A stretch of 64,000 bases of DNA from Bacteroidota bacterium (GCA_003389385.1 QQVM01000022.1:68490-132489); one strand, 5' to 3'; shown: positions 17,047-35,446, counted from the first letter of the stretch. The notes: generated by a model not told the origin, from the letters alone. Translations and numbers: made by a program.

Positions 17047-17634
17047 TTGCAGTCCAGAATATTTTCAATATCTATGAGATTCCTGAAGTTTATAGTGCTT
17101 CTGCCTGTTATTGTTTTGCTGCATTCCTGTTCAAAGCATTGTTCTAACATGCTTGACGGTCCATTGTCCATGGAAGAAAAAAAATTCATGTTGACCAATT
17201 CACAGAGATTTCTTTTTAAAAGTCAGTTCAATGATTCGGATTATGTGAATGTGGATACTCCTGTCTTTCTGGAAGTTCCCCTACGTGATGAGGAATGCGA
17301 TCATACTGGAAACCAGGCAGTCGAGCAAGTTTGGCGATTCCCGGGCAATGTGAATTTCATTGCTCGTTTTGAGCATTATAATGGAGAGGAATATTCCAAA
17401 TATCTCCTTCTTAAACACGGTGGGCTTGATGTGTTCAGCTACAATATATTTGAACCTAATTTTCACACCATAGAAATAAACACGCAGTTTTTTCATAATA
17501 CCATGATTGACTCCACTACTTCAACAACTCTTTCACCTTCAATTAGGAAAATCTGGTATGGTAAGCACACTGGTATTTTGAAGTATGAAGAGTGGAATGG
17601 CCGCATTTGGGACAGGCAAAAAGCTGTGAACTGA
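17047..17634 (+). CDS. Hypothetical lipoprotein.
   Basis: Signal peptide with lipobox FIVLLPVIVLLHSC. No family was recognised. Confidence 0.5.
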   Translation: MQSRIFSISMRFLKFIVLLPVIVLLHSCSKHCSNMLDGPLSMEEKKFMLTNSQRFLFKSQFNDSDYVNVDTPVFLEVPLRDEECDHTGNQAVEQVWRFPGNVNFIARFEHYNGEEYSKYLLLKHGGLDVFSYNIFEPNFHTIEINTQFFHNTMIDSTTSTTLSPSIRKIWYGKHTGILKYEEWNGRIWDRQKAVN

Positions 17635-17715
17635 TTTTTTACCAGCTTTTATTGTATTTTTTTATATCTCAAGTCTTGTTTACTTTGAAGTGGCTTTTAA
17701 TTCTTCATTAAACTC

Positions 17716-18426
17716 ATGCTTGATAATATAAGTCTGCATAATATTTTTTTTCTGGACATAGAAACTGTTCCTGCATTTCCGGATTTTACTTCTGCACCTG
17801 AGGCAGAACAAAAACTTTGGATGAAAAAAGCCGGCACACTACCTGCAATAAAGGATGAGGAACCTGAGAACAATTACAAGAGAGCCGGAATCTATGCTGA
17901 GTTTGGAAAAATCATTTGCATAAGCGCGGGTTATTTTACGAAAGAGAATACCTTCAGGATTAAATCTTTCTCCGGAGAAAACGAGAAAAAACTACTGCAG
18001 GAATTTGCCCATGCGGTGCAGCAATTTTGCTCCTCACAGGGTAAGTTGCTTTGTGCACATAATGGTAAGGAATTCGATTTCCCTTTTATTGCCAGAAGGT
18101 TGCTGATTAATGGTATTGCATTACCGGATGTTTTGGACATTGCAGGTAAAAAACCATGGGAAGTCCAGCATCTTGATACCATGGAGCTTTGGAAATTCGG
18201 TGATTACAAATCTTACACAACTCTTGCGCTGCTCGCCCATGTATTTGATATTCCTACTCCAAAGGATGATATTGACGGATCTCAGGTTGGTGATGTTTAT
18301 TGGAAAGAAAGAGATCTTCAACGCATAGTAGAATATTGCCAGAAAGATGTCCTCACTATTGCTCAGATCATTTTGAAATTTAAGGGTGAAGAAATCTTTG
18401 GGCCCGGTCAGATTGAGTATGCATAA
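17716..18426 (+). CDS. RNase H-like superfamily protein (predicted 3'-5' exonuclease, PolB-exonuclease-like, COG3298-type).
   Basis: N-terminal FFLDIETVP (DxE exonuclease motif I) and downstream H..N/D-containing motifs. Length is 236 aa. Confidence 0.55.
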   Translation: MLDNISLHNIFFLDIETVPAFPDFTSAPEAEQKLWMKKAGTLPAIKDEEPENNYKRAGIYAEFGKIICISAGYFTKENTFRIKSFSGENEKKLLQEFAHAVQQFCSSQGKLLCAHNGKEFDFPFIARRLLINGIALPDVLDIAGKKPWEVQHLDTMELWKFGDYKSYTTLALLAHVFDIPTPKDDIDGSQVGDVYWKERDLQRIVEYCQKDVLTIAQIILKFKGEEIFGPGQIEYA

Positions 18427-18433
18427 AAAAACA

Positions 18434-18461
18434 GCCACCATCACTGGTGGCCGTTTTTATT
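18434..18461. terminator. Bidirectional Rho-independent terminator, GCCACCA-tcac-TGGTGGC, flanked by A-run and T-run.
   Basis: Lies between the convergent genes ending at 18426 (+) and 18475 (-). T tracts are present on both strands. Confidence 0.6.
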
Positions 18462-18474
18462 AGAATCAATAAAA

Positions 18475-19587
18475 CTATCTTCTCAATCTGGATACTGCAT
18501 TTGTGGACTCCTGAGTTTGTGTTCTTTTGATCTTTTTGTAATCGAAGATCTGACTAACCTGTTTTACCAAATCCTGGCTGTTCCTGATTCTCATAACATC
18601 ACTGCGAACATTGAATATAACCTGCTCACAAGAAACACAACGACGCATTGCTATAGTTACATCTGACATTGTGAAGGAAGAGTTGTTTGGACGGAAATCA
18701 AGTGCACTGTTGTCAGGGTTGATTACGTAGGTATTTCCTGTATTTGGAGAATATTCCTGTTGGCTGGTGTGAGGATTTACTACAGTAGGATCGCTTTGAT
18801 TATTGTAACCTCTGGTGCGACTCTGAATGTTAGTCTGCTGATTCATTGTGTGAGCATTGCTGCTTGGAGTGTACTCCTGCTGGCTGGTGTGCTGATTGAA
18901 TGCGTTTGGGTTTGCGTTTTGATCACTGTAGCCTCTTTGACGTCCCTGAGTGCTGGTGTGCGGATTGATGGTGTTAGGATTGCTGTTCTGATCACCATAG
19001 CCTCTGTTGCGTCCATGAGTACTTGTGTGAGGATTTACTACGTTAGGATTTGTATTCTGATCGCCATTTCCAATGTTACGTCCGTGAGTGCTTGTGTGAG
19101 GATTAACTGTGTTGGGATTGGTATTCAGGTCCCCATTACCTAAGTTACGTCCATGTGTGCTGGCGTGCGGATTGAAAGAAAGTGGTCCTGCGTCAATCAT
19201 GCGATCTGGTACATTATTAGGATCGAATGTAGCAATCAGATCAGAGATTCTGTTGTAGTCTTCAGTAGCGATGCGGAAAGCTTTGCTTTCATTATCAGTG
19301 AAGATGTAGGCCATTTCATTTTGAGTGATTGCGATGCGCATTGCAGGATGAGTTGCTGTTGCGGCTGTCTGGATGATCAGGCGCTCTGCATCTACGTTGT
19401 TTTCAATCATTGTAAGACTGTTGTCATAAGCAGAGATGTTGCCCTGAGAAGAATTTGAACGCTTGCGTGCGTTTTCAAAGACAGATGTGTCATTTGAACT
19501 GATGTTGTTATCCTTGGTGCAGGATGCCGCTGTGGCAAGAATCAATGCTGCAGCAAGGAAAGTGCGGAGTTGATTCAAAGTTTTCAT
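18475..19587 (-). CDS. Lipoprotein with tandem 23-aa His/Asn/Thr/Gly-rich repeats (NPHTSTHGRNxGNGDQNTNPNxV).
   Basis: Lipobox LILATAASC. Four near-identical 23-aa repeats span aa 139-230, followed by two degenerate copies. No family was recognised. Confidence 0.7.
   Translation of the reverse strand: MKTLNQLRTFLAAALILATAASCTKDNNISSNDTSVFENARKRSNSSQGNISAYDNSLTMIENNVDAERLIIQTAATATHPAMRIAITQNEMAYIFTDNESKAFRIATEDYNRISDLIATFDPNNVPDRMIDAGPLSFNPHASTHGRNLGNGDLNTNPNTVNPHTSTHGRNIGNGDQNTNPNVVNPHTSTHGRNRGYGDQNSNPNTINPHTSTQGRQRGYSDQNANPNAFNQHTSQQEYTPSSNAHTMNQQTNIQSRTRGYNNQSDPTVVNPHTSQQEYSPNTGNTYVINPDNSALDFRPNNSSFTMSDVTIAMRRCVSCEQVIFNVRSDVMRIRNSQDLVKQVSQIFDYKKIKRTQTQESTNAVSRLRR
18898..19173 (-). repeat. 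Four tandem 69-bp coding repeats. Degenerate copies extend to about 18733.
   Basis: The periodicity is seen in the translated protein. The antisense ORF 18760..19143 is itself repetitive, as expected for a repeat artefact. Confidence 0.75.
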
Positions 19588-19772
19588 GATATGTATTATT
19601 TAAGGGTTAAAAAATTCTTTCTTTTTAATTCGATAGTAAATAAACGATATCCTGTGTCTCAATAATATCTAAAACTTGCCAGAGGCGGGTATGTAGGATA
19701 AGTGGCTGTTTTTGTGCTCTTTTTGGCAGGAATTCAAACCGTTATGAAAAGATTCTATTTGATACGATACAT

Positions 19773-19803
19773 AAAAAAAGCCGGCATCAGGGTGTATGCC
19801 GGC
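19773..19803 (-). terminator. Terminator-like hairpin oriented for minus-strand transcription: GCCGGCAT-cagggtgt-ATGCCGGC with a T7 run on the minus strand.
   Basis: A perfect 8-bp inverted repeat. The A7 run on the plus strand equals a T7 run after the hairpin on the minus strand. No annotated minus-strand gene lies upstream of it. Confidence 0.4.
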
Positions 19804-19814
19804 TTAATGAGCTA

Positions 19815-19991
19815 ATGAAAAAAGATTTAATTGTTGAACAGGTCCTGTGTTTCATGTATCCGCAGTATGAACAACCTGTTCGGTTCATTCAGCTCGCAAA
19901 TCTCATGAATGGGGGTGAGAATTTTTGTGCTGTGTGTACTTGGAAAGAACGAGAAGAAATTATTAAATCAATTTCTGACATAAAGAAATAA
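19815..19991 (+). CDS. Possible small protein of 58 aa (MKKDLIVEQVLCFMYPQYEQPVRFIQLANLMNGGENFCAVCTWKEREEIIKSISDIKK).
   Basis: The ORF falls just under the 60-aa track threshold in an otherwise empty 590-bp gap. It is uncharacterised. Confidence 0.2.
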   Translation: MKKDLIVEQVLCFMYPQYEQPVRFIQLANLMNGGENFCAVCTWKEREEIIKSISDIKK

Positions 19992-20176
19992 ATTTATACC
20001 TCCATCGAACTACCAAAACTGTATATATGGATGATTTGAGGGATAATTGGCCGGTCCTGACTGTCTTCAGGAAATGTTGATGCTCCTGTTTATATGTTTG
20101 TTCTTCCTGTGTTGTCCTGTCTGACTTGCATGAAAGCATAATGTTATTTTTGTAGTGTACGGATTAAAGCCCTTTC

Positions 20177-21949
20177 ATGAGCAATAAAGAAAAGCTGCTT
20201 AGCGTAAAAAATCTAAGTACTGAATTTTTAAGCGGCGAAGGAATACATAAAGCAGTAAAAGGAATCTCATTCGACCTTCACAAAGGCGAAACTCTAGGTC
20301 TTGTGGGCGAATCAGGATCAGGAAAATCTGTTACATCACTTTCTTTAATGCGACTTATCGGCAATCCCGGTAAAATCAGCGGAGGTTCTGTGATTTATTC
20401 TGAACGTGATGATAAACAGACAGACTTGCTTTCGCTACCTGAAAAAGAAATGAGAAAATATCGGGGGAAAGAGTTAGCGATGATTTTTCAGGAACCCATG
20501 ACCTCACTCAACCCGGTTTTAACTTGCGGATACCAGGTGGCAGAAGCTATCATGATCCATAACAGAGTGAGCAAAACAGAAGCACGAGAAGACGTGCTGA
20601 AGCTGTTCAGAAAAGTCGAACTGCCCAGACCGGAACAAATGTTTGATGCTTATCCGCATCAACTAAGCGGTGGACAGAAGCAGCGTGTGATGATCGCTAT
20701 GGCCATCAGCTGCAAGCCGCAGGTACTGATTGCAGATGAACCCACAACTGCACTGGATGTTACAGTACAGGCCACAATCCTGAAGCTTCTTAAAAATCTT
20801 CAGCAGGAAACCGGAATGAGTCTGATTTTTATCACTCATGACCTGGGCGTGATATCTGAAATAGCAGATCGTGTGCTTGTCATGTATCAGGGAAATATCG
20901 TTGAGCAGGGTGCCATAGGGGATATATTCATGAAACCCGCACATCCTTATACAAGAGGTTTGCTAGCCTGCAGACCCAGGCCTGATAGGAAGCTAAGGGT
21001 GCTTCCTGTCTTATCGGATTTCATGAAGGTTGATGCAGAAGGAAAGTTTTCAGAGAAGATTTTCAATGAAACAGAAGAGCTTAAAAAACTTGAGCTTAGT
21101 CCAGAACAAATAATCCGGGAGCGAAACAAAATATATTCTGGAAGCCCGGTCCTGGAAGTGAAAAACCTGAGCACCTGGTTTCCGGTGCGTAAAGGACTCT
21201 TTGGAAAAACAAAGGATTATGTGAAGGCTGTCGACGATGTCAGTTTCAATGTTTACCCCGGAGAAACCCTTGGTCTTGTAGGTGAGTCAGGTTGCGGCAA
21301 AACCACTCTTGGCCGCTCGATTATCCGACTGGTAGAGCCCAGCTCAGGACAAGTGATTTTTCGCGGATACGATTTCGCCGGACTCAGGGGAAAAGCACTT
21401 CGCCAGACAAGAAAGCACATACAGATTATTTTTCAGGACCCTTACTCATCACTCAATCCGCGAATGACCATAGGCAATGCAATTCTTGAACCAATGGAAG
21501 TGCATCGTATGCATGATAATTATGAGAAGCGAAGGATGAAGGTCTTTGAATTGCTTGAGAAAGTCGGACTTCAGGCAGATCACTTCAACCGTTATCCTCA
21601 TGAGTTCAGCGGAGGTCAAAGACAAAGAATCTGCATTGCACGCGCATTGGCATTGGAACCGCAGTTTATCATCTGCGATGAATCAGTCTCAGCTCTGGAT
21701 GTGTCGGTGCAGGCTCAGGTTCTGAATCTGCTCACGCAGCTTAAAAAAGATTTCGGACTTACCTATATTTTCATCTCTCATGATTTGTCTGTCGTAAAAT
21801 TCATGAGCGACAAGCTTATCGTCATGAATAAAGGTAAAATTGAAGAGGCAGGATATCCTGAAGAAATTTATGCAAATCCCAAGTCGGATTATACTAAAAA
21901 ACTGATCAGCGCAATCCCTGGAATGAAGAAGGATTTTTCCGGAAACTGA
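20177..21949 (+). CDS. ABC transporter ATP-binding protein with two fused NBDs, of the Dpp/Opp (YejF/GsiA-like) type.
   Basis: Two Walker A motifs (GESGSGKS, GESGCGKT), two LSGGQ signatures and two oligopeptide-type C-terminal extensions (AHPYTRGLL; SDYTKKLI). Confidence 0.85.
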   Translation: MSNKEKLLSVKNLSTEFLSGEGIHKAVKGISFDLHKGETLGLVGESGSGKSVTSLSLMRLIGNPGKISGGSVIYSERDDKQTDLLSLPEKEMRKYRGKELAMIFQEPMTSLNPVLTCGYQVAEAIMIHNRVSKTEAREDVLKLFRKVELPRPEQMFDAYPHQLSGGQKQRVMIAMAISCKPQVLIADEPTTALDVTVQATILKLLKNLQQETGMSLIFITHDLGVISEIADRVLVMYQGNIVEQGAIGDIFMKPAHPYTRGLLACRPRPDRKLRVLPVLSDFMKVDAEGKFSEKIFNETEELKKLELSPEQIIRERNKIYSGSPVLEVKNLSTWFPVRKGLFGKTKDYVKAVDDVSFNVYPGETLGLVGESGCGKTTLGRSIIRLVEPSSGQVIFRGYDFAGLRGKALRQTRKHIQIIFQDPYSSLNPRMTIGNAILEPMEVHRMHDNYEKRRMKVFELLEKVGLQADHFNRYPHEFSGGQRQRICIARALALEPQFIICDESVSALDVSVQAQVLNLLTQLKKDFGLTYIFISHDLSVVKFMSDKLIVMNKGKIEEAGYPEEIYANPKSDYTKKLISAIPGMKKDFSGN

Positions 21950-22009
21950 GAGTATATTCCCGGACCATTTCCGTCAAATTCCAGCAAAATCCCCATTCCT
22001 TTTTATACC

Positions 22010-22765
22010 TTGCAGCCCGTATTTATGTTAGGAGCTGAAAAAGAAAAATGGGCTGTAGTGGTCCCGATGGCAAATGAAGAACCGGATTTTTTGCCTTTTA
22101 TTAAGGCCTTGAAAAGCAGCCTTGATGGAATAGGTTCAGGTGTCGTATTTTTCATCGTTGACAATGTGTCAAAAGACCGCACTCTTCAGCTTTGCCAGGA
22201 ACTTTCCGCAACTGATAATAGATTCCAGACTATCTGGGCCCCTGAAAACAGAAATGTAGTGGATGCATATATGCGTGGCTACCAAGAAGCATACGATAAT
22301 GGATTTGATTACATCATTGAAATGGATGCAGGATTATCGCATGAACCGGATACTCTTTCAGAGTTTATAAAATTCCTCAGCCAGGGAGTGGAATGTGTCT
22401 TTGGCAGCCGCTTCATTAAAGGCGGCAGCATGGGCGACTCTCCGTTCAAACGAAGAATGTTGTCTCAAACAGGTACCATGCTTTCTAATTTGTTGCTCGG
22501 CACTCGAATGAAAGACATGACTTCCGGGTTCCAGGGCTTTAGAAATGATATCGTTAAGAAGCTATTGGAATACCAATTAAAATCCAAAGCTCATTTTTAC
22601 CAGACTGAAATCCGTTACCTTTTACGCAAACGTAAATACATAGAAATACCGATTCGTTATAAAGCTCCCTCGCCGAGAGTGTCAGGTAAGGCGATTAGAA
22701 ATTCGATAGAAACTTTGCTCTATTATTTCTGGAGGAGAATTACTTTTCGCTCAATTTCTCTTTAA
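22010..22765 (+). CDS. GT2 polyprenyl-phosphate sugar synthase (DPM1/Ppm1-like).
   Basis: VVPMANEEP...FFIVDNVSKDRT...EMDAGLSHEPD matches the DPM1-like consensus (VPTYNE...DDgS.DgT...DADLsHhP). Length is 251 aa with no TM segment. Confidence 0.7.
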   Translation: MQPVFMLGAEKEKWAVVVPMANEEPDFLPFIKALKSSLDGIGSGVVFFIVDNVSKDRTLQLCQELSATDNRFQTIWAPENRNVVDAYMRGYQEAYDNGFDYIIEMDAGLSHEPDTLSEFIKFLSQGVECVFGSRFIKGGSMGDSPFKRRMLSQTGTMLSNLLLGTRMKDMTSGFQGFRNDIVKKLLEYQLKSKAHFYQTEIRYLLRKRKYIEIPIRYKAPSPRVSGKAIRNSIETLLYYFWRRITFRSISL

Positions 22766-22767
22766 AA

Positions 22768-23781
22768 ATGAAGAAAGCAACTTCACTTATAATTACATCC
22801 ATTGCTTCGCCAAACGAAGTTCTGAAATCCTGTGCTGAAGGTTCACGTGAAAATGGCGTACGCTTCATTGTGATTGGCGATGTGAAATCACCGGCTGATT
22901 TTAAGCTGGATTCATGCGAGTATTATTCGGTGGAGGCTCAGGAGAAGACTGACTTTCGTCTCGCAAAGCTTCTTCCATATAAGCACTATGCACGAAAAAA
23001 CCTCGGTTATCTTCTTGCTAAAGACAGTGAAGTGATCATTGAAACGGATGATGATAATTTTCCACGTCAGGATTTTTGGAGTGAAAGAATTAGAATGACC
23101 GGCGCACTCAAACTTGAAAACCAGGGATGGGTAAATGTATACAGGGCTTTTTCCGATTCATATATCTGGCCCAGGGGATTTCCGATTGAATTCTTGCAGG
23201 ATGATATGAATTCAGGTTCTGATTTGATTATCAAGTTCCGCACTAAAGGTCCTGAACTCATGGACTGTCCGATACAACAAGGGCTTGCTGATGATAATCC
23301 GGATGTTGACGCGATTTACAGAATGACAATGAAATTGCCGGTAGTCTTCGGTAAAGTTGAGCCAATCGCACTTGCTAAAGGTTCATGGTGTCCGTTCAAC
23401 AGTCAGAACACCACATGGTTCAAAGAAGCATTTCCTTTATTGTACCTTCCTTCATATTGCAGCTTTCGCATGACCGATATATGGAGAAGTTTCATCGCAC
23501 AAAGAATAGCATGGACCTGCAATTGGTCTGTGTTGTTTCATTCGTCAACGGTTTGGCAGGAGCGCAATGAGCATAACCTGCTTAAAGATTTTGCAGATGA
23601 GGTCCCGGGATATCTTAACAATGTGAACATTTGCAAAGCTCTTGAGGAGGCTGACTTGAAAAGCGGTGTGCTGCATATCGCTGAGAATTTGATGAGATGC
23701 TACAAAATTATGGTATCAATGAATTTGGTTGATGAGAAAGAACTCAAATTGGTAGATGCATGGCTGCAGGATATATCCTGA
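22768..23781 (+). CDS. Hypothetical protein, possibly a DUF288/STELLO-like glycosyltransferase.
   Basis: N-terminal IITSIASPN...VRFIVIGDVKSP...RKNLGYLLA...ETDDDNFP recalls the DUF288 family. This is my own recollection and is unverified. The gene is coupled 2 bp behind the GT2 gene. Confidence 0.4.
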   Translation: MKKATSLIITSIASPNEVLKSCAEGSRENGVRFIVIGDVKSPADFKLDSCEYYSVEAQEKTDFRLAKLLPYKHYARKNLGYLLAKDSEVIIETDDDNFPRQDFWSERIRMTGALKLENQGWVNVYRAFSDSYIWPRGFPIEFLQDDMNSGSDLIIKFRTKGPELMDCPIQQGLADDNPDVDAIYRMTMKLPVVFGKVEPIALAKGSWCPFNSQNTTWFKEAFPLLYLPSYCSFRMTDIWRSFIAQRIAWTCNWSVLFHSSTVWQERNEHNLLKDFADEVPGYLNNVNICKALEEADLKSGVLHIAENLMRCYKIMVSMNLVDEKELKLVDAWLQDIS

Positions 23782-23832
23782 TTCTTCAAATTTGTAAAAT
23801 AACTTATATATAATTTCGCATCAGGTCTTTTA

Positions 23833-26016
23833 ATGGTTTACAGAAAAGAAATACTAGCCATGTTGACCCTGGCTATGCTCACTTCCATGTATTTTGTTTT
23901 ACACAGGAAGAAAAGGCAGTCCGATGCTGATCAGTCACAGAATTTTACTGTACAGGAAGCAATGACCCTTTCTGAAGAAGTGGTTCTTTATCGGGAAGTA
24001 TTTTCGTTTGAGAATGAAGCCGGAATAGACAATGCTTTTTCTTTGAGTGCGGATAAAGCAAACAGCGGAAGACGAAGTGTCAAACTTGAAAACAATGTCG
24101 AATTCGGCGCAACAGTAAAGAGAAGGCTCGGTTCACTTGCCAAGACCGGCAAAGCAGAAAGAGTAAAGATCAAATGTTTCGCACAGTCCGATGAAAAAAT
24201 AACAGAAGGTAAAATTGTAGTATCGATTGACGATCCTTCCGGCAAAAACCTGTTTTGGCAGGCGCTTAGCGTTCCCGAATCAGTCTTGAACTGGACAGAA
24301 CTTGATGCGGAATTCAATGTAAGCAAGGATGTGAATTCGGATGACAACATCTTGTCGGTCTATCCCTGGAATCCCGGAAAAAAAATATTTTATATAGACG
24401 ATCTTGAAATAAGCCTGATTGGCAAATCAGTGGTCCGGCCTTATGCTCAGGATCCTCTGATACAGACAAACTTTGAATTTACTTTTGAGAATGCATCCAC
24501 GGATGTATTTGGAAAAAATATCAGCGATGATGTGGCAAGAAACGGATCAAACTCACTCTTGCTTCACCCGGGAAACAAAAGTTTTTCAATCATTAAAAAA
24601 ATTGAAGAGGTAGCAAATGCGGATGTCAAAACGGTCTCGATCAGTTTTTGGGTTTATCCTCTGAAAGAAAATTGTGATGTCAATATGGTGTTTTCATTAA
24701 AAGACAGTTACGGAAAACAGAGCATTCAGAATAAAACCACGGGAAAAATGAAACTCCGTCGAAATGCCTGGAACAGAGTAAATGCGCGATGGAAAACAGA
24801 AAATGAGAATGCTGCAGCAGGAAGTGTTTTTGAACTTTATCTGATCAATCAGGGCAGAGGCGATGTGTATATCGATGACATGTTGGCTGTATTCGGAGAT
24901 CCTCCACCGGCACCTGGTGGCAGTCCGGTCATCAGCACTTATAAAGCGGAAAGCACAGTGCTGCCTCCGGTAAATAAACCTCCTTTCAGACCGGCTTACC
25001 TGCAAAAGTTGTCTGCATTGACGATGTTCAGTATGGGCAATGATAAAGCTGATGGAAAAATCGGCATTCAACCCGGCGCACATTTTCATTACGGGAATTT
25101 TACTGGCAGTGCTGAGAACCTCTTGATACTGCAAGGGAATACAGTAATCCTCTGCAATCTGGATGTGACTTCATCTGTTCCAAATAAGATCATTGAATTT
25201 GTGACAAGCCGGAATTATTCTTCTGCCATTCAAGTTGCGGATATAAAATTATATGATGAAAGAAAATGTCTGATCGCATTGCTGGAGGATAGAAAAAGCT
25301 TCAGTATTCTTTGCTTTGATGAAACCGGAGTGAAAGAGAAACCTATAAAACTTCAAGCTGAGTTGCAAGGGTATAATCATATCAGCTCAATCGACATTGA
25401 CGGAAAAAGCTCATTCGAAATAGTTCTGATGAGTGAGTCAGGGAAGTGGATCGTATTGTCCGATGACGGCGCTGAATTGTACAATGGTACTTTGAATGTC
25501 CCGGATCTTCGCATTACTTCCCTCTTGCAAATGAAGCATAATTCTTCAGAAAAAAAGTTGATGACATTTGGAATGAAATCCGGAAAGTCATTTTCAGCAA
25601 TATTGTCCTGGAATAAAGCGGCTCAAAAATTTCAGACAGAGAGAATGCACACATATGAATACCCGCTGTTCAATTCTGGAGATAAAATATTTGAACTTCC
25701 CCAGACTAATTCTTCCGTTTCATATTACCAGATTAATAATTCAGGCCGAAGATTTAGCATGCGTCTGATGAAGTATTCTGATAACAGGATGATTGTTCTG
25801 AATGATCTTGATTTCAAGGGATATCAAGCCGATGCGAACCCTAAATACTATGAAATGATCAGGGTATTGCCATTGTATCCTAACAAGATTTATCCAACAT
25901 CTTTCCTGGTCTTTCATGCGAATTGTTTCGACAAGGACTATTCAGGTAAATCATGCAGCAGGTTCGAAGATATTGACGGATTGCCCAACGGTTTTTCTAT
26001 TTATTCATTTCAATGA
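23833..26016 (+). CDS. Membrane-anchored extracytoplasmic protein with two N-terminal CBM4/9/22-like beta-sandwich domains and a large C-terminal region of unknown function.
   Basis: N-terminal TM anchor (LAMLTLAMLTSMYFVL). Two segments each run FE..G...S..A.SG..SL...FW...Y.W(N)..G...YIDD(L/M). A PPPAPGG linker follows. Confidence 0.6.
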   Translation: MVYRKEILAMLTLAMLTSMYFVLHRKKRQSDADQSQNFTVQEAMTLSEEVVLYREVFSFENEAGIDNAFSLSADKANSGRRSVKLENNVEFGATVKRRLGSLAKTGKAERVKIKCFAQSDEKITEGKIVVSIDDPSGKNLFWQALSVPESVLNWTELDAEFNVSKDVNSDDNILSVYPWNPGKKIFYIDDLEISLIGKSVVRPYAQDPLIQTNFEFTFENASTDVFGKNISDDVARNGSNSLLLHPGNKSFSIIKKIEEVANADVKTVSISFWVYPLKENCDVNMVFSLKDSYGKQSIQNKTTGKMKLRRNAWNRVNARWKTENENAAAGSVFELYLINQGRGDVYIDDMLAVFGDPPPAPGGSPVISTYKAESTVLPPVNKPPFRPAYLQKLSALTMFSMGNDKADGKIGIQPGAHFHYGNFTGSAENLLILQGNTVILCNLDVTSSVPNKIIEFVTSRNYSSAIQVADIKLYDERKCLIALLEDRKSFSILCFDETGVKEKPIKLQAELQGYNHISSIDIDGKSSFEIVLMSESGKWIVLSDDGAELYNGTLNVPDLRITSLLQMKHNSSEKKLMTFGMKSGKSFSAILSWNKAAQKFQTERMHTYEYPLFNSGDKIFELPQTNSSVSYYQINNSGRRFSMRLMKYSDNRMIVLNDLDFKGYQADANPKYYEMIRVLPLYPNKIYPTSFLVFHANCFDKDYSGKSCSRFEDIDGLPNGFSIYSFQ

Positions 26017-27941
26017 CAGAAGGCATGAGATATTCAATTGTCCTGATAGCATCGCTTTTCCTTTTTTCTTGCGGAGGCAAAAAAGAAAGAAAGAGTTTGG
26101 TGCAAAAGAAGAAGTTCGACATCGTTCATTTTAGTGCGCTGACAAACTGGGGGCAACAAAATCAAAAGGATAAAACAATAGAGTTTGACTATACAGATGC
26201 AATTTTGCATGGTTTTGTCATGCCCAGCATCAGGCAGGTTCAGGATGGAAAATTCACATTCGAGTTTTCTGTAAGTAATAAATCCGATTCGGCAGCCAAA
26301 TTCCATTATAAGATTTATTATCAGAATGAGAGTTATAAATTTCATGAGCTTGATTCTATCAGCGGAAGGGAGCATGAATTCGCGAATGAGAATTTTTATG
26401 GAAGCTGGCTCGATACAGGAATTGGTTTCAGAGAAACGGAATTAATTCAACCTGGAAAAAATGTTAACATTACGGATTCCTTTCAGATTGCAGGTAATCC
26501 CCGCAATGAGCAGATTTGTTTCAAGGATGGAGTGAATCAAAGGTGGAAAAGAAACCCAAGAACAGGCGAGTATCGTTTCATGCTCGTTGTAATCAGCGAC
26601 GCGGCATATAAATCAAAATTGATACCGGAATATATATCAAACATATCTCTGACTGTTAATGGAAGATTCCAAAATCCATTTTACTTTTTTAAATACGGTG
26701 CAGGAAGCAAGTCATCCGAAATTGCTGTAGTGCATGCGGAAGAGAGACTCATGGCAAGCGCACGCCCTGACCCGGGTGCGGGAATGTTTTATAATCCTTA
26801 TCATTTTGATTACAGGATGAAGAGAATTAAAACGGAATACCTCTGCGATACAGACAGCCAAGCTTACAAAAATGCTGCCTTTGAACAGTTTGTGCATCAC
26901 ATTGATTATTCAACCAATCTTGAAAACATTCCGGTAATCGCCGATGTCTCAGGAAGCAATTACACGAGGAGAGATTATAACTGGAACCGGAGTTTCTACA
27001 GAAGAGAAGAGCTCATCTCCACTCCCCCGAATGCGCCAATGTACCCTTGTGAAACTGTAGTTTCTGATCCAGTCAGAAAGGTGATTACCATTCGAAACCC
27101 CGGCGTTACATACGGCAACTGGAAGAAGGAAAATGTTGGAATCATCACAAGGCACGGACTGGCATACGGAAAGTATCGCATGAAGTGCAAGCTCACCAGA
27201 CAACTCAACGATCATAATGTCTGGAATGGAATCACCAATGCAATTTGGATGATATACCAAAGCGGTGAAGATTGGAATCTCAGACGGGCCTGCCGCAAGG
27301 AAGGATATATGGAAAATTACTACGGAGGAAGAAATGACAATCGCGTGAGCCGCGTCGGTTATTCAGAAATCGATTTTGAAATTTTAAAAACTCCGGATTA
27401 TTGTCCTGACCAGTACTTTCCACCCGTATATAAGAATCCTGCACCGAACAGATTCAATCAAAGCTCATGGAATGTACCATGGCCTCAGGATATAATGGAC
27501 ACGGATGACAAGCTGAGCGTATCCTGTACAAACTGGGACATGGCCTGCTGGGAGCCATCAAAGTACGGTGTCGGTTGCAATCCCATCTCATATCAGGGAC
27601 AAGTCTTTAATTCGCACAGATGGGACCACTGGTACCGTGCAATCACTCAAAAAAAGCAGGTAAGCGACAAGGAAATGTTTGGCGGACCATACTATTATTT
27701 TGAAATTGACTGGAGGCCGGAAGAGATTATATGGAGAATCGGTCCGGAACCTGATCAGATGTTCATTGTAGGATATATGAATAAGGACATCACTTCCATA
27801 CCGAATAATCAAATGCTGATGATTGTGACTCAGGAATTTCATAACACTCAGTGGTGGCCTGGTTCGCCTTACCATCAGCAATACATTCCTTTCCCTGAAA
27901 AAGATCTCGTGGGCGAGATTTATGAACTGGTGATTGAATAA
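26013..27941 (+). CDS. Lipoprotein with a GH16-like (concanavalin-type glucanase/transglycosylase) domain in its C-terminal half.
   Basis: Lipobox LIASLFLFSC. AYGKYRMKCKL...GITNAIWM...SEIDFEIL matches the GH16 signatures YGriEarIKl...WPAfWM...EIDixE, including the catalytic ExDxE. It overlaps the upstream gene by 4 bp. Confidence 0.55.
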   Translation: MTEGMRYSIVLIASLFLFSCGGKKERKSLVQKKKFDIVHFSALTNWGQQNQKDKTIEFDYTDAILHGFVMPSIRQVQDGKFTFEFSVSNKSDSAAKFHYKIYYQNESYKFHELDSISGREHEFANENFYGSWLDTGIGFRETELIQPGKNVNITDSFQIAGNPRNEQICFKDGVNQRWKRNPRTGEYRFMLVVISDAAYKSKLIPEYISNISLTVNGRFQNPFYFFKYGAGSKSSEIAVVHAEERLMASARPDPGAGMFYNPYHFDYRMKRIKTEYLCDTDSQAYKNAAFEQFVHHIDYSTNLENIPVIADVSGSNYTRRDYNWNRSFYRREELISTPPNAPMYPCETVVSDPVRKVITIRNPGVTYGNWKKENVGIITRHGLAYGKYRMKCKLTRQLNDHNVWNGITNAIWMIYQSGEDWNLRRACRKEGYMENYYGGRNDNRVSRVGYSEIDFEILKTPDYCPDQYFPPVYKNPAPNRFNQSSWNVPWPQDIMDTDDKLSVSCTNWDMACWEPSKYGVGCNPISYQGQVFNSHRWDHWYRAITQKKQVSDKEMFGGPYYYFEIDWRPEEIIWRIGPEPDQMFIVGYMNKDITSIPNNQMLMIVTQEFHNTQWWPGSPYHQQYIPFPEKDLVGEIYELVIE

Positions 27942-27948
27942 TATCTAA

Positions 27949-29907
27949 GTGGCTCAGCGAATGGCCGAAGAAAATGCAAAGCAAAGCGTGGGACTGAAAC
28001 AGAGAGGGGATATGCTCCTCTTTTACATTCTTTGCATTCTTTCAGTATTGCCTCTTTTCACACTGAAAATATTTTATACTCTCGAAGGTCCGCAACAAAG
28101 TTATTTTGCCGGAATACTTGCGAACATTTGGAAAGGCAATGAAATCGCTTCAATGCACTTCACTCAAACAGGGCATTTAAGTCCAGGATCTTCAATTCAG
28201 TATTTGCTTGCGATCTTTCAGCTTGTTTTCAGTGCAATTGTTTCTGAAAAAATATTTCAGTTTTTGTACATCATTTTAGCAGCATTCGCATTTCGATTGT
28301 TTCTTAAGAAACTGTACTTAAATACAAAGCCATATTCTCTGCTCATCTTCCCGCTTTTATTTTCATTTCCTTTTTTTACAGGAGCGTATTCAGTTCTTGC
28401 GGGCTTTGTTATTCTGTTCTTGATACTCGCATATTTTATTTCTTCAAATGTCTTGAGCCTAAAGCGTCTAACGGTCTTGTCTCTTTTGTTATTGGTTGCG
28501 TGTTTTACAGACACCTTGTCATTTGTACTCGCATTTCTGTTCATCACATTGTATCAGCTCACAGCGAATAAAGGAAATGATGTGACGAAAAGAGGCAGTA
28601 TCATTCCCATATTAATTACCTGCTTCCCTTCTTTCCTCTACTTATGGTTTTTTACGGAAGGTCAATCATTGTTTAGCACTTATTCATTTGAGATGTTTCT
28701 GAATCAGGCTAAGGAGCTGGTTCAATTAAGGAGTTTTATAGTTTTCAATCGGGAAAAGGAAATTTTCTACTCTATGGCGCTTGGACTTTTGATTGCGCTT
28801 GCTGCAGTCAGAACGTTTACATCACGAAAGAAACTTCAGGGAAATATTCTCTTTCTTACAGCTTCATTGGTTTTGATAGCTCTTTTATATTTTTTCATTC
28901 CTGCAATACCCTTGTTCTCCGGAAGCTCGGCGCACATGATGCAGGTTTATCTTCTTTCATTTCTTATATGTATTGCTGCAGTAAGCAATATCGACAATGT
29001 CTCCCGCATCCTTATTGGAATTATTCTCATAATTTCTGCAATAAATTATATTCTTAATCTTCATCCTGTACAAAAAATCAACAATCAGGAAGTCATTGAG
29101 CATTTTCACGCATCTTCACAAATGCGTTCAGACGCAACAGTGCTCCACCTTGATTACTCAGGCAATTGGTTTACACGGGAAATGAAGCATATGCTGGATG
29201 ATAATAAATCTCTTATGATCCTCAATGCTTCCTATGGTTTCGGAAATCTGTTTAATGCAAATCAAGCAAGATCCATAGCTCCATTCATCCAATCTGACCT
29301 AAACGCTAAGCCTTGTCCTGATTTGAAGGCATTTCATGATCAATGCAACTGCAGAACAGATTATATCATTCTTTGGAAAAAGCAGAATGTTGATACTGAT
29401 TGCAAATTTGAAAATGAGATCCTTAAAAGTGAGTACGAGCTGCTGCCATTGACTGATGCGCCGCATTTGCAGCTATGGCAAAGGAAACAATTGTCTTTTG
29501 TTTCCGGCAGCCGGAAACAGGATTTCGAAAATTATCAGGGGGATAATCTGCTGAACAGCGTATCAGGAAGTCGTTTCATGATGAAGGAGAATCTTGAATT
29601 CAGTCCGGGTCTTGAAATGAAGTTAATCGAAACGAATCTTGAATCTTCGATCTTCTTCCAGGGAAGTGTTAAGGTATACGGTACAAGCGGCAGTTCGGAA
29701 GCATTTCTGATCTTGAGCAGAGAAAGAGGTGGCGAGATACTGAATTACATTAAATCAGATGTTTTGCAGGTTCATTCAGGTGAAGGAGAATTTTTCATTC
29801 AGATGGAAATTTCAGACCCGCATCCAGATGATCTGCTGAAGTGCTATGTTTGGAAACCAGGAGGAGGGACTATAATTATTGATGATTTAAATGTAAACTG
29901 GCGATGA
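27949..29907 (+). CDS. Polytopic inner-membrane protein (about 10 TM in the first 370 aa) with a C-terminal CBM-like domain. The architecture is GT-C-like (ArnT/YfhO-like) and would be the partner of the GT2 polyprenyl-P-sugar synthase.
   Basis: Hydrophobic helices are read directly from the sequence. The C-terminal 130 aa carry the same ...CYVWKPGGGTIIIDDLNV signature as the neighbouring proteins. Confidence 0.5.
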   Translation: MAQRMAEENAKQSVGLKQRGDMLLFYILCILSVLPLFTLKIFYTLEGPQQSYFAGILANIWKGNEIASMHFTQTGHLSPGSSIQYLLAIFQLVFSAIVSEKIFQFLYIILAAFAFRLFLKKLYLNTKPYSLLIFPLLFSFPFFTGAYSVLAGFVILFLILAYFISSNVLSLKRLTVLSLLLLVACFTDTLSFVLAFLFITLYQLTANKGNDVTKRGSIIPILITCFPSFLYLWFFTEGQSLFSTYSFEMFLNQAKELVQLRSFIVFNREKEIFYSMALGLLIALAAVRTFTSRKKLQGNILFLTASLVLIALLYFFIPAIPLFSGSSAHMMQVYLLSFLICIAAVSNIDNVSRILIGIILIISAINYILNLHPVQKINNQEVIEHFHASSQMRSDATVLHLDYSGNWFTREMKHMLDDNKSLMILNASYGFGNLFNANQARSIAPFIQSDLNAKPCPDLKAFHDQCNCRTDYIILWKKQNVDTDCKFENEILKSEYELLPLTDAPHLQLWQRKQLSFVSGSRKQDFENYQGDNLLNSVSGSRFMMKENLEFSPGLEMKLIETNLESSIFFQGSVKVYGTSGSSEAFLILSRERGGEILNYIKSDVLQVHSGEGEFFIQMEISDPHPDDLLKCYVWKPGGGTIIIDDLNVNWR

Positions 29908-29960
29908 ACAAATTTGTACTCTAACGAGTAAAAACTAATTTTATCCGATTAGAAACTAAA

Positions 29961-30542
29961 TTGAATACTCATATACGATATCTTCAGCTATTCGGACTGC
30001 TGATACTTTCATTGTGCATGTTTTCATGTGTGTATAAAAGTAAGGTCAGCATTTCAAACGACTGCGAAAGCATGGTTGGCTGGACTGATACAGTACCACT
30101 GGTGAAAGGAGATGCGCATTCTGGAGATTATTTTACGCGAACGGATTCCGCTTCGAAGTACAGTCTTACTTTTCGAAGAAAGTTAAAGCACATCACAGAT
30201 TATGAAGTAAGAAGAATCGATTTGGGTGTATGGGTGCGTGCGGAGGAAGGCGCCAATGCCAAGCTGGTTGTTGCACTTGATCACAAAAAGCGTGCAGTGT
30301 TCTGGGCAGGAGTGGAGCTCAGGAAAGAGGACCTGGTGCCAGGCCGCTGGACAAGATTATACTACAGCTACTATCTGCCGGAAAAAATGCATCCTGAAAC
30401 AGAAGTAAAGGTTTACATTTGGAATACTTCAGGAAAGAAAGTGGATGCAGATGATTTCGATATTCACTTTTATTTGGGAGCTGAAAAATGGAAGAATGAC
30501 AGTTTCAGTCTAACTTCATCTCAGGAATTTCGCCATCAATAA
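29961..30542 (+). CDS. Small lipoprotein consisting of a single CBM4/9/22-like domain.
   Basis: Lipobox LLILSLCMFSC, then ...GW...AHSG.Y...WVR...KVYIWNTSGKKVDADDFDI. Confidence 0.55.
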   Translation: MNTHIRYLQLFGLLILSLCMFSCVYKSKVSISNDCESMVGWTDTVPLVKGDAHSGDYFTRTDSASKYSLTFRRKLKHITDYEVRRIDLGVWVRAEEGANAKLVVALDHKKRAVFWAGVELRKEDLVPGRWTRLYYSYYLPEKMHPETEVKVYIWNTSGKKVDADDFDIHFYLGAEKWKNDSFSLTSSQEFRHQ

Positions 30543-31899
30543 TCAGTTTTCCTGCAGTGGCTTTTGAGATTTCATCCACGCTCACTCCGGGTGCTCTTTC
30601 CAGAAGTTTAAATCCACCTTCAGGCAAAACATCCAGCACAGCAAGTTCTGTGACTATCTTTTTCACACATCGAATGCCAGTAAGCGGTAAGGTACATTTA
30701 GGCAACAGCTTGGATTCACCGGCTTTGTTCACATGCTGCATGGCTACGATGATGTTCTTCGCTGATGCGACGAGATCCATCGCCCCTCCCATGCCTTTCA
30801 CCATTTTACCCGGAATTTTCCAGTTGGCGATATCTCCGTTTTCACTCACTTCCATCGCACCGAGAATGGTCAGGTTTACTTTCCCCGAACGAATCATCCC
30901 GAAACTCATCGCAGAATCAAAAAACACTGAGCCTGGAACTGTGGTGATGGTTTGCTTGCCTGCATTGATAAGATCAGGATCTTCCTCTCCTTCATATGGA
31001 AAGGGTCCCATCCCCAACAATCCGTTTTCAGACTGCAGCACTACATTGATTCCTGAAGGTATGTAGTTGGCGACTAGTGTTGGTATGCCGATTCCCAGGT
31101 TGACATAGTATCCGTCTCTCAGTTCTTTCGCGATGCGTTTTGCAATTCCGTTTTTATCAAGCATGGCAATGTTGGAGTAAAATGATTTTATAATGAATGA
31201 TAAGGATTTTTTACGAACGGTTCTTTGTTCTATCCTCTTTTCGTATGAGGTACCCTGAAAAATCCTGTGTACATAAATTCCCGGTGTGTGAATCTGGTCA
31301 GGATCAAGTTCACCTGCAGGCACAAGTTCTTCCACTTCTGCAATGGTGATTTTTCCTGCCATGGCCATCAGAGGATTGAAATTTCTTGAAGTCGCCTTAT
31401 AAATGAGGTTACCGTGTGTATCGCCTTTCCAGGCTTTCACAATGGCGAAGTCGGCTTTGAACGCATATTCCATAAGATAATCCTTCCCGTCAAAGTTTCT
31501 CACTTCCTTGCCTTCGGCAATTTCAGTGCCGACTCCTGCCGGAGTGTAAACGACAGGCATTCCGTAACCTGCGGCAAGGCAGCGTGTGGCGAGTGTTCCC
31601 TGAGGAATCAGATCCACTTCCAGCTCGCCGCTGAGCATTTGCCTTTCGAATTCAGCATTCTCTCCCACATAGGAGGAAATCATTTTTTTAATTTGCTTTT
31701 TCTGAAGGAGCAAGCCTAGCCCGAAATCATCCACGCCCGCATTGTTTGAAATGCAGGTAAGTCCTTTCACGTTTTTCTGCACAAGTGCGCTGATGCAGTT
31801 CTCAGGGATACCGCAAAGTCCGAATCCGCCCAGCATCAGCGTCATTCCGTCCTGCACATCGCGAACTGCTTCTTCTGCATTCTTTACTATTTTGTTCAT
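30505..31899 (-). CDS. 3-oxoacid CoA-transferase with fused A and B subunits.
   Basis: The N-terminal half matches ScoA/AtoD (MNKIVKNAEEAV...GGFGLCGIPE) and the C-terminal half matches ScoB/AtoA (...LGIGIPT...SENG catalytic Glu region). The ORF opens at 31956, but the likely start is MNKIV at 31899. Confidence 0.8.
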   Translation of the reverse strand: MNKIVKNAEEAVRDVQDGMTLMLGGFGLCGIPENCISALVQKNVKGLTCISNNAGVDDFGLGLLLQKKQIKKMISSYVGENAEFERQMLSGELEVDLIPQGTLATRCLAAGYGMPVVYTPAGVGTEIAEGKEVRNFDGKDYLMEYAFKADFAIVKAWKGDTHGNLIYKATSRNFNPLMAMAGKITIAEVEELVPAGELDPDQIHTPGIYVHRIFQGTSYEKRIEQRTVRKKSLSFIIKSFYSNIAMLDKNGIAKRIAKELRDGYYVNLGIGIPTLVANYIPSGINVVLQSENGLLGMGPFPYEGEEDPDLINAGKQTITTVPGSVFFDSAMSFGMIRSGKVNLTILGAMEVSENGDIANWKIPGKMVKGMGGAMDLVASAKNIIVAMQHVNKAGESKLLPKCTLPLTGIRCVKKIVTELAVLDVLPEGGFKLLERAPGVSVDEISKATAGKLIIDGEIPEMKLD

Positions 31900-31909
31900 G
31901 ATATAGAAA

Positions 31910-34126: not shown

Positions 34127-34232
34127 AATTGTTTGAATTTTGTAAAAGTACTAATTTTTTAAGGGCACGAAACCTGTGCGTTTTCAAAGTGTTATAACGA
34201 CAGGAATGCCTCAAAATTTTGTAAATTGCAAT

Positions 34233-34832: not shown

Positions 34833-34866
34833 TTGCCTGAATTTTTATACTTAAACACAGAAACAT

Positions 34867-35370: not shown

Positions 35371-35395
35371 TAAGCTTAATATTTCATTCAAAAGA

Positions 35396-35432
35396 AAAGG
35401 GGTTACCTGCATTCGCGGATAACCCCTTTTTA
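35396..35432. terminator. Bidirectional terminator hairpin, AAAGGGGTTA-(14 nt)-TAACCCCTTT.
   Basis: A 10-bp perfect inverted repeat between the convergent ferritin (+) and M16 (-) genes. T tracts are present on both sides. Confidence 0.55.
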
Positions 35433-35446
35433 ATGTCAGGAAGATT

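Follow-up and report, generated by a model that had tools for sequence, protein, structure and literature searches.

The described systems closest to the locus analysed here include the two-step periplasmic glycosylation systems (GtrB/GtrV with GtrA, CsbB/YfhO, ArnC/ArnT and Ppm1/Pmt), in which, as in this locus and its relatives, a DPMS/ArnC/GtrB-like GT2 is encoded together with a GT-C-fold protein whose C-terminal domain faces outward. Unlike the GtrA-containing systems, however, the seven-gene cluster (P1–P7) in our window, the whole 64,000-nt stretch of Bacteroidota bacterium DNA that was analysed (GCA_003389385.1 QQVM01000022.1:68490-132489), has no GtrA-type flippase gene. Its GT-C protein (P6), which bears a CBM module, matches no family of Pfam or NCBIfam, and the window's only GT2 (P2) has DxG in place of DxD and is paired with a GT75-like protein (P3), not with a GT-C. 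P3 in turn resembles MtdL and Hyg20, which convert GDP-L-Fuc/L-Gal from the pyranose to the furanose form, and the plant UDP-arabinopyranose mutases (RGP/UAM), sharing full-length homology and most active-site residues with them (PMC9937993); it departs from MtdL in having Gln for His287 and Tyr for Asp87, and in matching Pfam STELLO (DUF288) instead of RGP. MtdL and Hyg20 serve antibiotic pathways, whereas P3 is encoded in an envelope locus, directly after a Pren-P-GT-like GT2.

Mycobacterial arabinan and lipomannan assembly (decaprenyl-P-arabinofuranose and -mannose; Emb, AftA-D, PimE) offers a further parallel, in that a polyprenyl-P-monosaccharide, possibly a furanose, would be used, and several GT-C paralogues lie side by side in relatives of our locus (L053, L055, L070, L090). 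The homology link is nevertheless confined to the GT-C fold, the hosts here are Gram-negative Bacteroidota, and mycobacteria derive their donor from PRPP instead of an NDP-furanose. From the GH16 hydrolases and transglycosylases (lichenases, laminarinases, XTH, fungal Crh, Kre6/Skn1), the lipoprotein P5 is set apart by a divergence too great for PF00722, NCBIfam and PDB sequence searches, by a Cys-containing segment of ~110 residues between the catalytic strand and the next conserved strand, where the spacing in canonical GH16 is much shorter, by an extra N-terminal domain of ~300 aa, and by its invariable pairing with P4. The genes of MBOAT plus AlgX/SGNH O-acetylation systems (alginate AlgI/AlgJ/AlgX, cellulose WssH/WssI, peptidoglycan PatA/PatB) are absent from the window, but relatives hold an MBOAT and an AlgX gene in the slot occupied here by P6 and P7, which indicates that the locus targets an extracytoplasmic polymer. 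A targeted full-text literature search gave no paper describing such a combination of genes, in agreement with an earlier note on this DNA, which had not recognised it as described.

The reading that we prefer, at about even confidence, takes the region for a single allele of a serotype-like, hypervariable envelope-glycan island in an uncultured Bacteroidota lineage, which would decorate and remodel a periplasmic or surface glycan.

Proteins of the seven-gene cluster

The seven co-directional genes (Table 1) are separated by gaps of 60, 2, 51, −4, 7 and 53 bp, which agree exactly with those in the earlier note. The + strand of the cluster shows no convincing intrinsic terminator, but promoter and terminator scans did not exceed shuffle expectation. 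The note's assignments of P2 as a polyprenyl-P-sugar synthase-like GT2, of P6 as GT-C-like and of P5 as a GH16-signature lipoprotein were borne out, a GT-C fold being obtained for P6 and both fold and motif being found in P5; so was its mention of CBM4/9/22-like domains in exported proteins. For P3 it had given the family, DUF288, correctly but had missed the homology to MtdL and GT75, which changes the likely donor chemistry relative to the note's view.

Table 1 Coordinates of the seven genes and of features within them, in positions of the window.
Feature	Position (nt)	Strand	Length (aa)	Description
P1	20177-21949	+	590	Dual-NBD ABC ATPase, Dpp/Opp/GsiA type; Pfam ABC_tran x2 + oligo_HPY
P2 (GT2a)	22010-22765	+	251	Soluble GT2, polyprenyl-phosphate glycosyltransferase type (DPMS/ArnC/GtrB-like); Pfam Glycos_transf_2, 8.4e-19
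P2 motif	22325-22333	+		D106-A-G108
P3	22768-23781	+	337	Cytoplasmic DUF288/STELLO-family GT-A protein; Pfam STELLO, 1.2e-11
P3 DDD	23047-23055	+		Residues 94-96
P3 Arg	23173-23175	+		Arg136
P3 Gln	23557-23559	+		Gln264
P4	23833-26016	+	727	N-terminally anchored exported protein; two CBM4_9/22-type beta-sandwich modules, Pro-rich linker, FG-GAP-like C-terminal region
P4 CBM module 1	23983-24429	+		~aa 51-199
P4 CBM module 2	24475-24897	+		~aa 215-355
P5	26013-27941	+	642	Lipoprotein, lipobox LFSC (Cys20); N-terminal beta domain, divergent GH16-fold C-terminal domain (~aa 345-642)
P5 motif	27366-27380	+		E452-I-D454-F-E456, catalytic type
P6	27949-29907	+	652	GT-C-fold membrane glycosyltransferase, ~11 TM helices
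P6 motif	28084-28107	+		D46-G-P-x-H-x-Y-N
P6 CBM-type jelly roll	29557-29901	+		aa 537-651, C-terminal
P7	29961-30542	+	193	Small lipoprotein, single CBM4_9/CBM22-type module

The best matches of P2 are all polyprenyl-phosphate sugar synthases: P. furiosus DPMS (PfDPMS, 5mlz; 1.6e-20), followed by ArnC and GtrB, in the PDB, and PgfS, ArnC, AglJ and PpgS, all under their cut-offs, in NCBIfam. In a rough hydropathy scan P2 showed no TM segment, and a conserved C-terminal stretch, 'LLYYFWRRITFR', may form an interface helix. Pren-P GTs coordinate the catalytic metal through the second Asp and the Gln of their DADLQx motif, whose first Asp is the proposed catalytic base, the metal-binding second Asp being used by all three structurally characterised enzymes (PMC12690121). 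P2 has instead the atypical motif MDAGLSHEP, kept as D-A-G-L/F-S-H in all 14 GT2a members, so that GT2a retains the first Asp, has Gly for the second and departs from DADLQx, which counts against the preferred reading. The second GT2 of the related loci, GT2b, retains DAD; it is the usual partner of P6 relatives, and its absence from the window likewise counts against that reading.

On sequence grounds, P3 is homologous throughout its catalytic core to the NDP-pyranose/furanose mutase MtdL (GT75), with a phmmer match to MtdL in the PDB (7xpr/7yua) at 2.5e-24 in which residues 5–300 of P3 align with residues 8–323. In Pfam, P3 matches STELLO (PF03385) only and not RGP (PF03214), which MtdL, its sequence rebuilt from the alignment, matches at 9.7e-13. 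Residues D94–D96, R136, D179, S212, Q213, R234, D237, R266 and H269 are invariant in 32 sequences; those from D179 onwards correspond to MtdL D195, S228, Q229, R257, D260, R289 and H292 (mapped against PMC9937993), and R136 is the equivalent of the autoglycosylated Arg of MtdL (PRGFP). Against a mutase reading, the Mn-binding His287 of MtdL is replaced by the invariant Gln264 and its essential catalytic Asp87 by an invariant Tyr74; His287 is lost in the inactive AtRGP5, and active plant RGPs have Ser at position 87 (PMC9937993). The P3 family comprises at least 7955 homologues (clusters), including Acidobacteriota, where the pairing of GT2a with P3 is kept even so.

P4 and P5, whose ORFs overlap by 4 bp, are both predicted to act outside the cytoplasm: P4 has an N-terminal hydrophobic anchor, and the lipoboxes of P5 and P7 also support an extracytoplasmic location. 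The P4 of the window itself has no Pfam match; in its 37-member family alignment (A3), FG-GAP_3 was matched by 23 members, FG-GAP by 10 and CBM_4_9 by 2. The C-terminal domain of P5 has a beta-jelly-roll fold, its E-x-D-x(x)-E motif is invariant in 48 sequences, and the GH16 strand motifs flanking it align in the correct order. Among the best structural matches for the P5 and CBM parts are the MLG-PUL GH16 of Bacteroides ovatus and laminarinases. Neither Pfam PF00722 (at an E-value of 0.01 or better) nor NCBIfam or PDB sequence searches matched P5, a P5 profile reached an E-value of only about 2 against the PDB, and hhalign against canonical GH16 gave a probability of 0.4%. We assign the domain to a divergent GH16 type that is predicted to be catalytically intact. 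The family comprises 1351 clusters, and P5 is single-copy and conserved at 50–60% identity over 388 species.

P6 has no match in Pfam or NCBIfam and falls into no described GT-C sequence family (e.g. PMT_2, YfhO, GT39, GT83); its structural matches include AftD, AftB and AftA, and 3 of 62 homologues gave stray matches to DUF6541, DUF6056 and PTPS_related, which we take to be families of the GT-C clan. Asp46, at least 90% conserved in the first outer loop directly after TM1, is a putative catalytic residue. A periplasmic alpha/beta domain (~aa 390–513) precedes the C-terminal jelly roll, and the odd number of TM helices (~11, from the helix list) places this C-terminal domain outside. Members of the P6 family adjoin DPMS-like GT2 genes, which suggests that the donor would be polyprenyl-phosphate-linked. 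P6-family genes also occur within the same island elsewhere (L004/L005, L025, L042), and in one locus (L001) such a gene follows a canonical GH16 at a distance of 1 bp. A paralogous GT-C in relatives carries a beta-trefoil (fascin/DUF7910) domain and has a weak PMT_2 match.

P7 aligns with the first module of P4 (BLASTP 4e-7), which also aligns with the P7 family. The profile of that family (alignment A6) matches a CBM22 tandem (4xup) at 1.6e-5, and 8 of its 21 members match Pfam CBM_4_9, the best at 5.6e-5. A CBM4_9/CBM22-type module, for which glycan binding is predicted, is common to P4, P6 and P7.

Comparison of related loci

We compared the window with 80 related loci from other species' genomes (±10 kb), 48 of them well-flanked. 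The pair of 727-aa and 642-aa genes, in the order P4–P5, is adjacent in essentially all 80 and is the sole constant element. The earlier note had proposed to check gene-neighbourhood conservation: pairings do recur, GT2a lying immediately 5' of 13 of 17 P3-type genes and, in 29 of 44 cases, GT2b directly adjoining a GT-C-like gene, but the full order P1–P7 is absent from every other locus examined. Its proposal that the seven genes form one system gives way to a hypervariable island made up of three or more separable modules.

Around P4–P5 the modules vary between MBOAT+AlgX, carbamoyltransferase, GT2+GT-C and GT2+GT75-like, with at least one decorating module in 46 of the 48 well-flanked loci; MBOAT+AlgX was found in 23 of these and a GT2 with a GT-C-like gene in 23. 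The same island position is elsewhere filled by MBOAT+AlgX, by carbamoyltransferase+SxtJ+DUF5989, by further GT2/GT-C pairs, or by LtaS-like and Wzy_C-like genes. The P7 family occurs in 19 of the 48, directly upstream of P4 or beside GT2b. The association of P4–P5 with decorating genes persists in a second group of loci, where the housekeeping flanks differ, and since it is kept across two synteny backgrounds, shared ancestry of gene order is not the full explanation; the cluster arrangement exceeds chance.

P1, which lies directly upstream of whichever gene opens the island, is present in 25 of the 48 well-flanked loci, all of one synteny group, and is absent from the second. It matches a GsiA-like NCBIfam model at 2.4e-205, yet under the curated cut-off, and no permease gene adjoins it. 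P1 is a lineage-specific conserved boundary gene of the island, and its membership of the glycan system is not demonstrated; the earlier note had placed it at the head of that system, but nothing ties it to the glycan genes.

Readings of the island

Around the observed folds, motifs, module boundaries and co-occurrence we draw the following inferences on substrates, donor sugar, acceptor glycan and the feeding of P6 by P2. The constant core would be the translationally coupled P4 (membrane-anchored, with CBM and FG-GAP-like parts) and P5 (the GH16-type lipoprotein), which together would bind a beta-linked glycan beyond the cytoplasmic membrane and then cleave or transglycosylate it. Interchangeable decoration modules would be plugged in around this pair, two of them in the window, P2–P3 and P6–P7. 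In the cytoplasm, the MtdL-like P3 would convert an NDP-pyranose to an NDP-furanose and P2 would load the sugar onto undecaprenyl phosphate; the lipid-linked sugar would be turned outward by a flippase, and P6 would transfer it, on the outside, onto a glycan held by its own CBM, P7 being a free copy of the P6-type CBM, also outside. Two further observations count against this preferred reading. A glycan synthase or a flippase was found neither in the window's cluster nor among the gene clusters that recur in the 80 loci (±10 kb), and one locus (L089) has the GT2a–P3 pair with no GT-C or P4/P5 nearby, so that GT2a–P3 may feed something else.

The absence of the exact seven-gene order elsewhere among the loci examined also lends itself to another explanation, unlikely in our judgement but one to be taken seriously, in which functionally unrelated modules share a recombination hot spot and the cluster is an accident of a plastic region: P2–P3 would supply a sugar, cytoplasmic or lipid-linked, to a different pathway, for example that of LPS or capsule, P6 would have another target, and P4–P5–P7 would do something else. 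Such independence is what one sees in L089, which has ABC–GT2a–P3–GT2b only, in L088, where GT2a–P3 stands with carbamoyltransferase, GT87 and PMT_2 genes without P4/P5, in the many loci with P4–P5 plus MBOAT/AlgX only, and in the housekeeping flanks, which keep their order. Yet all variable genes found are of envelope-glycan-modifying types, mostly with extracytoplasmic catalytic or binding domains, the CBM module common to P4, P6 and P7 argues for a common ligand, and P4–P5 retains such partners in both synteny backgrounds.

Rather improbably, the GT2/GT-C modules could act on lipid A/LPS core (ArnC/ArnT-like) or O-glycosylate envelope proteins (Ppm1/Pmt-like) instead of modifying a polysaccharide, with peptidoglycan-associated targets possible given the convergent PBP1a gene that adjoins the island in both synteny groups (in 18 of the 48 well-flanked loci), an adjacency that plain conserved gene order could also explain. 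PMT enzymes bear a beta-trefoil MIR domain, and the beta-trefoil and weak PMT_2 match of the paralogous GT-C speak for this explanation, as does peptidoglycan O-acetylation (PatA/PatB), which also has an MBOAT and AlgX-type SGNH architecture; but the CBM22/CBM4_9-type module of P6 is more in keeping with a glycan acceptor than with lipid A or a peptide, and the constant partner is a GH16-type enzyme. GH16 and CBM4_9/CBM22 are, for their part, classic components of glycan degradation, typical of catabolic enzymes, and this, which counts against the preferred reading too, would together with the structural matches to the B. ovatus MLG-PUL GH16 and laminarinases suit P4, P5 and P7 as a PUL-like apparatus for foraging on external beta-glucan or a related polysaccharide, the adjoining glycosyltransferases being unrelated. 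We consider this very improbable: no SusC/SusD was found in window ORFs of at least 150 aa (326-16435, 17047-19587, 30505-38452) or in the recurrent clusters of the 80 loci, Pfam detected no T9SS C-terminal domain in P5 or P7, P4 is membrane-anchored via its N-terminus, P5 is unusually conserved for such a role, and its constant companions are biosynthetic or decorating (MBOAT/AlgX, GT-C).

A more specific form of the envelope-glycan island reading, which we put forward only tentatively and as somewhat unlikely, takes P4–P5 to be an unrecognised widespread machine (at least 388 species) in which a periplasmic transglycosylase of GH16 type, with its CBM/FG-GAP partner, would build or remodel a structural beta-glycan envelope layer of an uncultured Bacteroidota clade. 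The island would then be a serotype-like decoration kit, including a new route to a polyprenyl-phosphate furanose, which a STELLO/GT75-like mutase and a DxG-type GT2 would jointly make for a CBM-bearing GT-C.

Implications

Should the modules be independent, the finding shrinks to several well-annotated orphan families. If the island reading is true, a large GH16-like family missed by current profiles (1351 clusters, 388 species) would be tied to envelope biology and not to foraging. Bacterial DUF288/STELLO (at least 7955 clusters) would gain its first functional hypothesis, as an NDP-sugar mutase coupled to lipid-carrier loading, and plant STELLO biochemistry could also be informed. Freshwater and soil Bacteroidota would diversify a surface or periplasmic glycan via a plug-in island, which would be relevant to their resistance to phages and grazers.

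Constant P4–P5 pair and variable partners

We sought relatives of the lipoprotein P5, encoded by the fifth of seven clustered plus-strand genes (P1–P7), in one genome per species, and found them in 388 genomes. The best 80 of these, all uncultured Bacteroidota MAGs, were examined as loci, and their genes were labelled through phmmer comparison with the window proteins and with accessory proteins from three pilot loci. The loci combine a constant core with variable partners: the P4>P5 pair is present and adjacent in essentially all 80, at the centre of a variable cell-envelope glycan locus, here called the island. The modules that come and go around it are MBOAT+AlgX, carbamoyltransferase, GT2 with GT-C-like membrane protein, and GT2 with GT75-like protein. 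Of 48 well-flanked loci (6 kb or more to each side), 46 carry one or more decorating modules. MBOAT+AlgX and the GT2/GT-C-like combination each occur in 23/48, the P3 family in 12/48 and a P7-like lipoprotein in 19/48, while an ABC ATPase is found in 25/48 and the penicillin-binding protein PBP1a in 18/48. Occasional island genes encode carbamoyltransferase+DUF5989+SxtJ, GT87, Wzy_C+TPR or an LtaS-like sulfatase-family protein. The names of the carbamoyltransferase/DUF5989/SxtJ genes stem from the saxitoxin cluster; the trio lies inside the island at L004 237-2703 and L088 9108-11556.

The loci fall into two synteny groups. In one, the island is flanked by the ABC ATPase and by CoA-transferase/PBP1a, and the window belongs to this group, its flanks agreeing gene for gene; in the other, the flanks encode saccharopine dehydrogenase, GlnA, PSP1, HolB, GldH and PBP1a. 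Since P4–P5 retains decorating companions in both, the association is more than inherited gene order. The ABC ATPase P1, which the earlier note had placed at the head of the system, is missing in one group and is invariably found at the edge of the island, and was therefore rejected as a component; no permease gene lies beside it.

The two types of GT2 keep different company. The type represented by P2 (GT2a) directly precedes P3 in 13/17 cases, and a second type (GT2b) is directly adjoined by a GT-C-like gene in 29 of 44. Modules are also found independently of one another, as GT2a–P3 shows: one locus consists of ABC-GT2a-P3-GT2b and nothing more (L089), another has the pair with other transferases but without P4/P5 (L088), and in a Pyrinomonadaceae genome (Acidobacteriota; L087 5560-9017) it is adjoined by a Wzy_C/PDZ membrane protein, in the order Wzy_C-GT2a-P3. 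This occurrence in another phylum suggests that GT2a–P3 is a mobile two-gene unit with a function of its own.

Enzyme-like proteins and a shared binding module

Sequence searches of P4, P5, P6 and P7 against Pfam, NCBIfam and PDB returned no matches, so that structure prediction was needed. The fold guesses of the earlier note, drawn from sequence alone, proved essentially right.

Features of the cluster and its surroundings in the window
Feature	Position	Strand	Length	Description
T9SS-domain ORF	326-2167			C-terminal sorting domain (CHU_C or Por_Secre_tail)
T9SS-domain ORF	4075-5754			C-terminal sorting domain (CHU_C or Por_Secre_tail)
Intergenic region	19588-20176		590 bp	5' of ABC gene; without Rfam match
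P1	20177-21949	+	590 aa	Dual-NBD ABC ATPase, oligopeptide/GsiA type
P2	22010-22765	+	251 aa	Soluble GT2
P3	22768-23781	+	337 aa	Pfam STELLO/DUF288
P4	23833-26016	+	727 aa	N-terminal hydrophobic anchor, two beta-sandwich modules
P5	26013-27941	+	642 aa	Lipoprotein; nothing from sequence-level annotation
P6	27949-29907	+	652 aa	GT-C-like membrane protein; good predicted structure, pLDDT 84.6
P7	29961-30542	+	193 aa	Small lipoprotein
CoA-transferase	30505-31956	-	483 aa	Single ORF, two CoA_trans stretches
PBP1a (class A PBP)	31910-34126	-		Transglycosylase + transpeptidase; convergent neighbour of island
T9SS-domain ORF	34176-34832			C-terminal sorting domain (CHU_C or Por_Secre_tail)

P5 belongs to a large and tight family (1351 clusters at 50-60% identity) in which the motif E452-I-D454-F-E456 is invariant; signatures of the adjacent GH16 strands also align, and in the right order. 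An hhalign comparison of the family with canonical GH16 was not significant (probability 0.4%), and the motif it aligned was the correct one. In its partner P4, FG-GAP repeats match the C-terminal region in 23/37 family members. The first module of P4 is homologous to P7 (4e-7), which resembles the C-terminus of P6 more weakly, and a joint alignment of the three revealed a common signature, AHSG ... SID ... W ... LP ... Y-WN ... DD-x-V. The P7 profile matches a CBM22 tandem (1.6e-5) and Pfam CBM_4_9 matches 8/21 family members, identifying the shared module as CBM-like. A Rosetta-stone case, with free P7 wherever P4 is without its first module, was considered and is not clean, long P4 often occurring alongside a P7-like gene.

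The predicted structure of P6 ends in a C-terminal jelly roll of 115 residues, and Asp46, right after TM1, is near-invariant. An exhaustive HMMER search recovered 914 distant homologues, whereas a word-indexed search found only 3; the family profile gave only noise against PDB sequences. On an unrelated contig (L001 8016-10877), just 1 bp separates a canonical, secreted GH16 bearing a T9SS tail from the P6-family gene (534 aa) that comes next, a second, independent adjacency of GH16 and GT-C-like genes. GT-C-like genes are also multiplied in places: one locus has several together with two copies of P4–P5 (L070), and another has three paralogues in tandem (L090 658-6595), where a fascin/DUF7910 beta-trefoil domain is found in one paralogue and in a small upstream ORF.

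Each of the solved structures nearest to P2 is a polyprenyl-phosphate glycosyltransferase (P. furiosus DPMS at 1.6e-20, then ArnC and GtrB), and its NCBIfam matches, PgfS, ArnC, AglJ and PpgS, each score under the curated cut-off. Characterised enzymes of this kind carry DADLQx, with metal bound by the second Asp and the Gln (PMC12690121); P2 and all 14 orthologues have D-A-G-L-S-H in its place, whereas GT2b retains D-A-D. P3 is homologous over its full length to the structurally solved GT75 NDP-pyranose/furanose mutase MtdL (2.5e-24). Equivalents of MtdL D109-D111, R159, D195, S228, Q229, R257, D260, R289 and H292, which are among the residues needed for metal, nucleotide or sugar binding (PMC9937993), are invariant in the P3 family, which differs in an invariant Gln at the Mn-binding His287 and an invariant Tyr at Asp87. 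Since Pfam RGP scores MtdL itself but not P3, the profile evidence places P3 in a sister family of GT75 rather than in GT75 in the strict sense.

Cluster layout and flanking sequence

The ORF list reproduced the seven plus-strand genes and the gaps of 60, 2, 51, -4, 7 and 53 bp reported earlier; exact-sequence matches, from a metagenome-assembled 'Bacteroidetes bacterium', carry the locus tags DWQ44_1326x-1327x, and the GC content of the region (38-44%) is similar to that of the remaining window. A terminator scan found no plus-strand terminator of any strength within the cluster. Promoter and terminator consensus scans did not exceed shuffle expectation and give no verdict on operon structure; the Bacteroidota -33/-7 pattern, at or below that expectation, was likewise uninformative. 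No Rfam families were found within the window. Upstream of the ABC gene, a GC-rich hairpin with a 10-bp stem is followed by a T-run on the minus strand (19805-19778).

Downstream, the 3' ends of the convergent P7 and CoA-transferase genes overlap by 38 bp, and the latter is a single ORF in the window, whereas related genomes have two genes (219 + 232 aa). PBP1a neighbours the island convergently in both synteny groups and directly follows P5 in ~12 loci, which could be coincidence or a peptidoglycan link. Three window ORFs bear T9SS sorting domains, and the organism therefore has a T9SS; such domains are absent from every exported protein of the cluster.

A possible glycan-decoration pathway

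The analysis establishes the folds, motifs, predicted locations and common CBM module, and an unchanging core whose partners differ from locus to locus. Beyond this, we propose that P4–P5 would bind a beta-linked envelope glycan and then cleave or transglycosylate it. P3 would supply an NDP-furanose, P2 may place the P3-derived sugar onto undecaprenyl phosphate, and P6 could move a lipid-linked sugar to the glycan held by its own CBM, with P7 as a putative auxiliary binder. For this integrated decoration island, we judge the chances to be about even. Its weakest links are the DxG of P2 and the His-to-Gln change in P3, the absent flippase and polymer synthase, and the supply of P6 by P2: island relatives of P6 (L004/L005, L025, L042) adjoin GT2b, and the window is without GT2b.

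The same genes might instead be independent modules gathered in a hot spot, an unlikely reading. Modification of LPS, protein or peptidoglycan seems rather improbable, and catabolic use is the most doubtful of the three.

The GT2/GT-C logic is the known paradigm of GtrB/Gtr, CsbB/YfhO, ArnC/ArnT and Ppm1/Pmt. We found no prior description in the literature on bacterial GT75, Bacteroidetes GT-C with GH16, or bacterial STELLO. Seemingly new are the cryptic GH16-like family with its obligatory CBM/FG-GAP partner, the DxG GT2 paired with a STELLO/GT75-like protein across phyla, the CBM- or beta-trefoil-bearing GT-C enzymes, and the plug-in organisation of the island, for each of which we found no published description. 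The island yields several testable hypotheses on large orphan families.
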